A stretch of 64,000 bases of DNA from NCBI GenBank assembly GCA_039190895.1, contig JBCCXY010000007.1, positions 1,357 through 65,356 on the forward strand, in the 5' to 3' direction. A program made the position numbers and the translations under genes. The notes beneath the pieces are model-generated. The model saw only the letters and a program-made list of their open reading frames with translations, made no database searches and was not told the origin of the DNA. Of this stretch, positions 11,868-12,305 are shown piece by piece; positions within the stretch are counted from its first letter, which is position 1; each line of letters starts with the position of its first letter. Source of the DNA: Pseudomonadota bacterium. Lineage in GTDB: Bacteria; Pseudomonadota; Alphaproteobacteria; Rhodobacterales; Rhodobacteraceae.

Positions 11868-12118
11868 TCGAGGAACGCATCCCGGCGCGGAATCAAGGCC
11901 GCAGGCCGCCGCGGGCCGGTTTGGGAAGAAAACGGGGCCGGGCCCTCCCCAGGCCCGGCGATACGTCTCAAGTCGCGCATCCTTCCGAACGAGTGCGGTA
12001 CAGCCACCATAAACCGCGCAGAACGCCCGACAATCTCGCCGGTCCAGGGCCCGTCGACAGCGCGGCTCGTTACCCAATTGTCGTGGCGATTAAAGCACCA
12101 GGGAAATCAGGCCAAGCG
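11868..12118 (+). repeat. MITE/REP-like repeat, copy A (extended, about 250 bp)
   Basis: Begins GAACGCATCCCGGCGCGGAATCAAGGCCGCAGGCCGCCGCG and ends ...GGCCCGTCGACAGCGCGGCT. Shares termini and core with copies B, C and D. Confidence 0.8.
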
Positions 12119-12305
12119 CAGCGAACGCATCCCAGCGCGGAATCAAGGCCGCAGGCCGCCGCGCTATCGCCGGGCCCACCCGAGGCCCGGCGATTGGTTG
12201 CCACCTGCGCGACGCTCGAAACGAAGGCGGGACGGCGCAATAAACGGCATCGACCATTCATTAGGATCGCCGGACCTGGGCCCGTCGACAGCGCGGCTTG
12301 CAACA
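12119..12305 (+). repeat. MITE/REP-like repeat, copy B (tandem to A)
   Basis: GAACGCATCCCAGCGCGGAATCAAGGCCGCAGGCCGCCGCG...GGATCGCCGGACCTGGGCCCGTCGACAGCGCGGCT. Internal palindromes CCGGGCC...GGCCCGG. Confidence 0.8.

Follow-up and report, generated by a model that had tools for sequence, protein, structure and literature searches.

A hairpin-forming intergenic repeat at a type III export operon and its REP/MITE-like family in the Rhodobacterales

Repeat copies and their gene context

The stretch of DNA analysed here (64,000 nucleotides (nt); hereafter the window) was taken from contig JBCCXY010000007.1 (positions 1,357 to 65,356, forward strand) of the marine Rhodobacteraceae assembly GCA_039190895.1. 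It possesses four homologous non-coding copies (A to D) of a palindromic repeat of ~165-200 bp, each of which is hairpin-forming and sits between genes (Table 1). The first site has genes of a type III export apparatus in the order sctR(FliP)-sctS-[A][B]-sctT-sctU-[C], with a small convergent open reading frame (ORF) beyond copy C. The second site, on the other strand, reads AAA(MoxR)-DUF5682-[D]-VWA_CoxE-SWIM. The repeat belongs to a family of the broad kind that comprises repetitive extragenic palindromic (REP) sequences and miniature inverted-repeat transposable elements (MITEs), and this family is found across the Rhodobacterales.

The core of every copy is bounded by GCGCGGAATCAAGGCC and GCGCGGCT, and in the window and its relatives homology between copies extends a further ~13-20 nt upstream and ~22 nt downstream of it. 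A first-pass annotation of this DNA had placed four copies at essentially the positions given in Table 1. Its wider limits (11868-12118, 12119-12305, 14200-14388, and 46655-46812) take in these short flanking extensions, which are themselves homologous, and the termini and internal palindrome that it quoted are correct. A four-way alignment of the copies has a mean column identity of 73% with long invariant blocks, and both the direct and the inverted relations among them were recovered by a repeat search of the window. The 16-mer GCGCGGAATCAAGGCC is present exactly four times in the window and the 3′ motif three times, compared with 0.12 expected for the latter. A profile hidden Markov model built from 74 copies in other genomes, with the window excluded, matches exactly copies A to D and nothing else in the window.

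Copy B lies head-to-tail with copy A, 68 nt past the core of the latter. Copy A is degenerate, possessing an extra 18-nt insert after GCCGCCGCG and a right arm that is diverged and degraded, while copy C occupies the entire gap from the sctU stop to the stop of the convergent ORF. Pfam matches to the flanking genes uphold the gene context reported earlier, namely a position between sctS and sctT, another after sctU and a third splitting the DUF5682 and VWA genes. The repeats had also been described as non-coding. In agreement with this, a codon-usage gene caller run on the window called zero genes on the copies, and the whole segments are missing from orthologous operons.

Table 1. Coordinates of the repeat copies, of the parts of copy B and of the neighbouring genes in the window.
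Feature	Position	Strand	Composition or location	Evidence
Copy A	11865..12067	+	5′ extension 11865-11884 (AAGTCGAGGAACGCATCCCG), core 11885-12067	profile E 1.4e-18
Copy B	12114..12320	+	5′ extension 12114-12134, core 12135-12298, 3′ extension 12299-12320	profile E 3.8e-26
5′ hairpin of copy B	12135..12164	+	GCGCGG / AATCAA / GGCC-GCA-GGCC / G / CCGCGC	alifold pairs 2-6:25-29, 13-16:20-23
Left arm of copy B	12159..12194	+	S1 CCGCGC-T-ATCGCCGGGCCC, loop ACCCG, S2 AGGCCCGGCGAT	arm itself an imperfect palindrome
Centre of copy B	12195..12265	+	ATAAAC at 12240-12245	
Right arm of copy B	12266..12298	+	S3 ATCGCCGGACCT, S4 GGGCCCGTCGAC-A-GCGCGGC(T)	pairs with left arm
Copy C	14197..14403	+	5′ extension 14197-14209, core 14210-14368, 3′ extension 14369-14403	profile E 3.7e-22
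Copy D	46630..46819	-	5′ extension 46819-46814 (TCCCCT), core 46813-46652, 3′ extension 46651-46630	profile E 4.5e-27
FliP/sctR	10965-11603	+		Pfam
sctS (Bac_export_3)	11603-11857	+	upstream of A and B	Pfam, gene caller
sctT	12347-13156	+	between B and C	Pfam, gene caller
sctU	13153-14196	+	between B and C	Pfam, gene caller
Small convergent ORF	14404..14709	-	facing copy C; C-terminus ...SGR(E/D)D...DLIG	gene caller; conserved in relatives
VWA_CoxE gene	45508-46629	-	one side of copy D	Pfam
DUF5682 gene	46820-49210	-	other side of copy D	Pfam

Structure of the element

The core is near constant in length (162-166 nt) in the family. Its 5′ module is a 30-nt hairpin with the general form GCGCGG / AAUCAA internal loop / GGCC-GNA triloop-GGCC / G / CCGCGC. 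This leads into the left arm, a 29-nt imperfect palindrome made up of S1 (ATCGCC NNNCCG), a loop of ~5 nt and S2 (CGGNNN GGCGAT), which is followed by a variable centre of ~75 nt with TTGGC and a near-invariant ATAAA(G). The right arm consists of S3 and S4 with no loop between them and ends in GCGCGGC(T). Pairing of S1 with S4 and of S2 with S3 brings the two inverted imperfect palindromes together across the ~75-nt spacer to give a 32-bp long-range hairpin.

Among 77 distinct copies, 91.7% of the cells of this long hairpin are paired and 19 of its 36 pairs have changed on both sides. None of 500 shuffles reached the observed pairing, and sliding the partner by 1-3 columns reduced it to 31-50%. 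In these alignments, the complementarity of the arms is thus shown to be upheld by compensatory change. S1 also pairs locally with S2 (87% Watson-Crick). Each arm is therefore a 12-5-12 imperfect palindrome, and the element is thus built like a REP doublet (REPIN). The segment CCGCGC can pair with either the 5′ or the 3′ GCGCGG, so that formation of the 5′ hairpin is an alternative to pairing at the base of the long stem. A column-pair scan of the centre revealed no conserved helix there and found the arm helices alone.

RNA folding of the unit, as envisaged in the first-pass annotation, yields a stable hairpin, the sense-strand RNA of copies B, C, and D folding at -77 to -83 kcal/mol. The values for copy B are -82.6 kcal/mol for the sense and -96.6 kcal/mol for the antisense strand. 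The canonical copies do not have the make-up of an intrinsic (Rho-independent) terminator, as there is no U-tract after the hairpins, the element ends reading ...GCGCGGCUU and ...GGCCUUGAUUCC, and no site in these copies was scored. A terminator scan of positions 11500-14800 gave zero sites in B or C, its one scored site being on the minus strand in the aberrant insert that copy A carries. A promoter scan detected nothing promoter-like in the canonical copies.

The unpaired loop of the 5′ module has a GAATC in each window copy (11891-11895, 12141-12145, 14216-14220, and 46803-46807), corresponding to the GANTC site of the CcrM methylase of Alphaproteobacteria. In copies which were not selected by the search motif, the loop holding GAATC often differs by one base.

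Insertion relative to syntenic relatives

The first site was compared with relatives whose sct operons are fully syntenic with that of the window and whose SctT homologues have 74-76% identity. The spacing of sctS and sctT is 4-19 nt in these relatives versus 489 nt in the window. Between the sctU stop and that of the convergent ORF, the relatives have 2-25 nt or an overlap, versus 207 nt in the window. At the second site, three relatives whose VWA proteins are 79-84% identical have an ATGA overlap between the DUF5682 and VWA genes. The sequence of the corresponding junction in the window is ...CAG TGA-TCCCCT-[core]-22 nt-ATG A..., with both frames intact, and copy D is bordered by GTGA and ATGA (RTGA on both sides). 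Because the orthologous junctions of syntenic relatives are empty, this comparison of sequences shows the window copies to be insertions relative to the orthologous operons. Three of the four come between genes that in relatives are adjacent or probably translationally coupled, and no reading frame is disrupted. This is in accordance with the earlier remark that sctS and sctT are separated by 490 bp of the repeat and not coupled.

The element is present at the same junctions in closer relatives. In one that is 94% identical (L130), it lies at the DUF5682/VWA junction in the same orientation as copy D, and in another with an 88%-identical SctT a copy adjoins sctT at the sctS-sctT junction in the orientation opposite to that of the window. 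Three Logan contigs assembled from short reads, belonging to relatives or to the organism itself, stop inside the element (L122:1-189, L123:1-130, and L130:1-47), so that metagenome assemblies repeatedly break at the repeat. The opposite orientation at the sctS-sctT junction and these breaks are the observations that come nearest to the recombination hotspots suggested in the first-pass annotation.

Copies A and B, and likewise copy D, separate gene pairs which are adjacent or overlapping in relatives and hence probably translationally coupled there. A transcript passing through the window copies would carry a hairpin of about -75 to -97 kcal/mol. REP sequences and bacterial interspersed mosaic elements (BIMEs) inside Escherichia coli operons act as barriers in mRNA processing or decay. 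By analogy, the insertions in the window would be likely to uncouple translation, to alter how the mRNA is processed or decays and to change the ratios of upstream to downstream products. For the sct export-gate genes and the MoxR-DUF5682-VWA operon, coupling loss by insertion would offer a testable cause of altered stoichiometry.

With regard to ribosome binding, the original Shine-Dalgarno sequence AAGGAG at the end of the DUF5682 gene (46820-46840, minus strand) is now 190 nt from the VWA start. The 3′ extension of copy D (46630-46651, minus strand) includes a new GGGAGG, which stands 7 nt ahead of the VWA ATG, and the same arrangement is found in the 94%-identical relative. The sctT start after the A/B insertion (12320-12346, …CCAACCTCTGCGCGCGACATG) has no purine-rich Shine-Dalgarno sequence, where relatives have AGGG or AAGG, and translation of sctT may be weakened by this loss.

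Distribution and size of the family

The family was scanned for with the exact 21-base motif GCGCGGAATCAAGGCCNNAGGCC, using one genome per species. At least 116 loci with this motif were found, and among the matches listed all are Rhodobacterales, with at least 31 named genera carrying the element. These include Sulfitobacter, Roseovarius, Salipiger, Roseinatronobacter, Ruegeria, Shimia, Jannaschia, and Loktanella as well as a Paracoccus metagenome-assembled genome (MAG). With blastn it was identified on 96 plasmids (of Pseudosulfitobacter, Salipiger, and Roseinatronobacter), no annotation lying beneath these matches. The element is accordingly abundant elsewhere, as the first-pass annotation had anticipated. 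An association with phages is not supported, there being one match in 2.9 million viral contigs.

The loci that were fetched (~1 Mb in total, ~8 kb each, not overlapping the window by BLAST) have, together with the window, 151 non-overlapping copies by nhmmer, all of which are outside called genes. Second copies in multi-copy loci are unbiased by the motif and just ~18% of these match it exactly, so that the true copy numbers are several-fold higher. In view of the same figure, the apparent invariance of the 5′ module across genera was dropped as an artefact of the search. Extrapolation from the sampled DNA, which has ~one extra copy per 27 kb, and from the window, with 4 copies in 64 kb, suggests a copy number on the order of 100 per genome.

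Searching the window with the Rfam 15 covariance models at the gathering score identified only two tRNAs, and at E-values up to 10 nothing relevant was found over positions 11800-14450. The literature was searched for the motif and for REP, MITE or RAYT in Rhodobacterales or roseobacters, and no description was found. The family is apparently a previously unannotated and undescribed, class-level member of the broad REP/MITE-like kind that falls outside any named family. Few marine bacteria have been studied as much as the Rhodobacterales (roseobacter group), yet the repeat is absent from Rfam and unannotated in the records examined. A family model would improve annotation by removing spurious Arg/Pro-rich ORFs and by explaining long ‘intergenic’ gaps within operons; it would also account for assembly breaks and supply a marker for strain typing.

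Subfamilies and variants

A second subfamily (L018:2084-2236, L035:2889-3086, and L039:6594-6745) has every stem exchanged while AATCAA, GNA, and ATAAAG are kept, its sequence reading GCCCGG-AATCAA-GGTGC-GNA-GCACC-G-CCGGGC-AGCGCCCGACCG... Both subfamilies occur together in genomes of Sulfitobacter and Roseovarius. At locus L086 the stems of the 5′ module are likewise exchanged with the loops kept.

Variants were also found, these being a short form (5′ module, one palindrome, and 3′ end), copies without the 5′ module, solitary 5′ modules, and copies with extra hairpin modules placed at one fixed point in S1. In other genomes, differing outer inverted repeats occur around the core, and the extensions are short and genome-specific. 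The optional S1 modules are ~25-45 nt in length and occur in several genera, examples being ATGCCnnnGGCATGnnnnnnnCATGAC and GGCAGGCGATTTCC...GGAAATCTGCC. Loci with optional modules are L017, L028, L039, L064, L075, L080, and L085 (inside S1) as well as L019, L023, L029, L079, and L094. These modules resemble the expansion segments of a structured molecule.

Placement and orientation

The placement of the family was assessed per occupied gap, with expected counts taken from all intergenic gaps in the same loci. The occupied gaps comprise 68 convergent, 37 co-directional, and 6 divergent ones versus 19.5, 73.7, and 17.8 expected (chi-square p 1.3e-32). The convergent share is thus 61% versus 18% expected, and divergent (promoter) gaps are avoided. 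Many copies fill their gap to within ~5-20 nt of both stop codons. In co-directional gaps outside the window, 23 copies are in the sense and 15 in the antisense orientation, a difference that is not significant. As there is no significant family-wide orientation bias, the sense orientation of the three operon-internal window copies carries no weight, and the idea that the sense orientation of all four window copies is meaningful was dropped.

The first-pass annotation had associated the element with operon interiors and with the sct operon in particular, and this did not hold for the family, which lies mainly between convergent genes and has no orientation preference relative to transcription. 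Such placement, together with the lack of an orientation preference, argues against a dedicated role as a strand-specific attenuator. The element is a fairly ordinary repeat of the REP/MITE type and not a dedicated switch of a secretion operon.

Adjacent copies are arranged head-to-tail in a ratio of 18:1, or ~12-13 to 1 for true neighbours once the halves of split copies are removed. Copies are more alike within than between genomes, with identities of 0.70 versus 0.49 for the centre and 0.90 versus 0.75 for the arms. Three orthologous gaps in different genera were found to hold copies in opposite orientations, each with the arm type of its own genome, and no pair in the same orientation was seen in orthologous gaps across genera. 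The number of shared gaps is about that expected of independent insertion into a thousand or so permissive gaps (our own estimate). The opposite orientations and the empty sites therefore point to gain and turnover and not to ancient conserved sites. The family provides a clean data set on the persistence of REP-like repeats, with ~150 copies that show compensatory change, a pair of subfamilies, and sites seen both filled and empty.

Comparison with known repeat families

REP, REPIN, and BIME sequences (Di Nocera et al., 2013, PMC3733652; Bertels et al., 2017, PMC5581495) are the closest known kind. CGTC-tagged REPs are predominant in the Alphaproteobacteria, with stems that start with A-T pairs and loops of 4-5 nt, and are often found as dimers located between convergent or co-directional ORFs (Di Nocera et al., 2013). 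Like REPs, the present element consists of extragenic imperfect palindromes in high copy number, with stems beginning with A-T and T-A pairs and loops of ~5 nt. It also shares with them a position downstream of genes, between convergent and co-directional ORFs, and the occurrence of genome-specific sequence types, with several subfamilies per genome and no near-identical copies. As with REPINs, two inverted units form one larger hairpin, although the right-hand unit is here without a loop, and the mosaic build with optional modules is a feature of REP/BIME sequences. However, there is no GTAG or CGTC tag, the stem being preceded by GCGC or GCGCN with CGTC found sporadically in S4, and the consensus tail is TTGG instead of CCA. 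The stem is 12 bp in contrast to 8-9 bp, and the asymmetric 30-nt 5′ hairpin and the ATAAA in the spacer are additional to what is found in REPs. Clusters are head-to-tail, not alternating or head-to-head as with REP/BIME sequences, and unlike in REPIN-RAYT systems no RAYT gene was found in what was a weak test.

The ERIC/IRU sequences of the Enterobacteriaceae are likewise imperfect palindromes of >100 bp with a family-wide distribution. They are found at transcribed intergenic sites, including those inside operons, in either orientation, and have size variants arising from indels at fixed positions. ERIC differs in showing no sequence relationship to the present element, in having no separate 5′ module and in its copy numbers and host range. 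Other small non-coding insertions with a long hairpin and with insertion polymorphism between relatives are the MITEs Correia/NEMIS, RUP, and BOX, for which co-transcription with neighbours and altered mRNA processing are possible. MITEs have terminal inverted repeats, target duplications and a recognisable parent insertion sequence (IS), whereas the repeats of the present element are internal, its ends are asymmetric and no parent IS was seen. The label MITE/REP-like given in the first-pass annotation is hence apt for a member of the dispersed, non-coding palindromic REP/MITE class, though not in the strict sense of a MITE, with the repeats not terminal, the ends asymmetric and no partner IS.

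Among the Alphaproteobacteria, RIME, Bru-RS, and RPE are also intergenic mosaics of ~100-180 bp built from large palindromes, including some within operons (for RPE, see also Di Nocera et al., 2013). These occur in different bacterial orders, and the comparison made here is one of their descriptions. In addition, RPEs insert in-frame into genes, which the present elements do not. Elements derived from IS200/IS605, or HUH elements, have in common with the family asymmetric ends and subterminal hairpins in which structure is kept over sequence, a modest orientation bias relative to replication-related GC skew and strand-asymmetric mismatches, although whole-element folding energies are equal on the two strands of the present element. 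Unlike IS200/IS605, the present element has no TnpA or TnpB found nearby and no conserved target tetranucleotide, and there is a possible 4-bp duplication at copy D.

Nature and mobilization of the element

The family is probably a large, non-coding, REPIN/BIME-like and non-autonomous mobile mosaic repeat of the Rhodobacterales that is tolerated at the 3′ ends of genes. Being non-autonomous, the element would be copied within genomes by a trans-acting enzyme, and this enzyme might read a folded single strand rather than double-stranded terminal repeats, with insertions persisting where harm is least. Firm commitment is made here to the class alone, because the evidence as to strand and mechanism is mixed. 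Single-strand (HUH-like) mobilization is accordingly put forward as a tentative proposal, which has somewhat less than an even chance of being correct.

There are three hints of single-strand recognition. Firstly, the inserted DNA has asymmetric ends without terminal inverted repeats. Secondly, mismatches in the long hairpin are A.C in 108 cases and G.T in 26 on the forward strand, and consequently the reverse strand is able to form wobble pairs at many columns. Thirdly, the forward strand is on the locally G-rich strand in 70 cases versus 38 (108 informative loci, p 0.003).

A number of observations weigh against a mobile repeat read as a single strand. Whole-element RNA fold energies do not decide which strand matters, as their means are alike (-84.8 and -84.2 kcal/mol) and each strand is the more stable one about equally often (38 and 39 times). 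No hit at E-values up to 10 was obtained when E. coli RayT was compared by phmmer with the ORFs of at least 70 amino acids in the ~1 Mb of loci and the window, this being a weak test with a single-sequence query and ~8 kb per locus. None of the ORFs in the ~1 Mb surrounding 150 copies is bracketed by two element ends, and a partner IS was not found there either. The GTGA and ATGA around copy D represent a possible 4-bp target duplication, though selection for intact frames is an equally possible origin. Y1/HUH-type elements make no 4-bp target duplication. Near-identical copies were not found, the highest centre identity between copies being 0.87, and there is therefore no sign of current activity. 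Finally, the strong excess in convergent gaps could reflect a selected function instead of mere tolerance.

As regards target sites, 94 flank pairs showed no recurrent duplication and just a weak CC at -3/-2 and T at +1. Nothing comparable to the RTGA flanking copy D was seen at the A/B and C sites, where the relatives are too diverged. One further speculation, which is rather unlikely as a whole, is that the element, far from being a selfish repeat in decay, is one partner in a long-lived Rhodobacterales-wide system analogous to REPIN-RAYT. A different enzyme would here read the folded strand via the unpaired AAUCAA, GNA, and ATAAA while the stems co-vary, and copies would maybe be co-opted as hairpin barriers between convergent genes.

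Besides a mobile repeat tolerated at gene ends, the element could be primarily a selected cis-acting RNA or DNA device acting there as a bidirectional terminator, an insulator or a stabiliser of mRNA 3′ ends between convergent genes, each copy being retained for its service to the neighbouring genes. This would account for the convergent excess described above, for the frequent filling of the gap to ~5-20 nt from both stops, for stems held by compensatory change with conserved loops and for a hairpin that is very stable on both strands, and REPs of other bacteria are placed alike (Di Nocera et al., 2013). It is nevertheless considered unlikely, as the canonical copies have neither a U-tract nor a terminator-like site and close relatives function without the element in the same gaps. 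In addition, the opposite orientations and genome-specific arms in orthologous gaps look like turnover and not conservation, and three of the four window copies are inside operons, where termination would be harmful.

A classical MITE, that is a deletion derivative of an IS with a DDE transposase, moved as double-stranded DNA via terminal inverted repeats with a target duplication, is a still more doubtful origin. The long inverted repeats, whose arms change together from genome to genome as they should if a single transposase bound the pair, the RTGA on both sides of copy D and the clean insertions with intact frames would be consistent with it. However, the inverted repeats are internal, with the 30-nt hairpin module and 6-20 nt lying outside them on one side and ~22 nt of unrelated sequence on the other, and the 94 flank pairs have no recurrent duplication. 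An IS with these ends was not detected within the ~1 Mb surrounding 150 copies, where the partial copies are truncated, short or interrupted by nested modules. The arrays are head-to-tail, and each arm is palindromic, which is typical of a REP rather than of a terminal inverted repeat.

It is improbable that the element serves at the DNA level to bind gyrase, IHF/HU or some other nucleoid protein at places where supercoils accumulate through convergent transcription, a role that has been proposed for E. coli BIMEs. The convergent-gap excess, the mosaic modular build with optional modules and the GANTC (CcrM) site in the 5′ loop would fit such a role, and AATCAA resembles the core of the IHF consensus, which is WATCAANNNNTTR. 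Against this, the consensus is unmet, as AATCAAGGCCGNA fits WATCAA but the TTR part reads GNA, and the stems change freely if complementary, which fits folding better than duplex recognition. A reading of the copies as separate genes for small RNAs, or as belonging to a structured RNA family already described, would be compatible with the size of ~165 nt and with the conserved structure and loops, but is hardly credible given the lack of any Rfam match even at E-values up to 10 and of a promoter-like site, the absence of an orientation preference relative to neighbours, the copy number, estimated at around a hundred or more per genome, the occurrence of truncated and mosaic variants, and the presence of copies inside operons in the sense orientation.

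Neighbouring repeats and other features

Other repeat families occur in the same intergenic gaps as the element. Examples are the hairpin GAGGTCCCGGATCAGGTCCGGGAC and an outer inverted repeat, CTGGAGCGGACGTTCGCAA ... ACGTCCGCTCCAGGCC, which encloses the element in a Rhodobacter MAG. Loci with such flanking families are L002, L020, L040, L066, and L085 together with L005, L013, L044, L054, L096, and L115. The window also has a 160-nt direct repeat (40596-40755 and 40926-41085) with 71% identity between its copies, which are 330 nt apart, and this is unrelated to the palindromic element.

A complete non-flagellar type III secretion export apparatus is uncommon in the Roseobacteraceae group. The VWA protein of the window is closest to those of Roseobacteraceae, namely Tateyamaria (79%) and Pseudaestuariivita rosea (76%). 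The SWIM/VWA/DUF5682/MoxR operon has two adjacent tRNA genes immediately downstream of it (43070-43217, minus strand; Rfam scores of 55 and 72.5 bits), and this pair is a possible island boundary.

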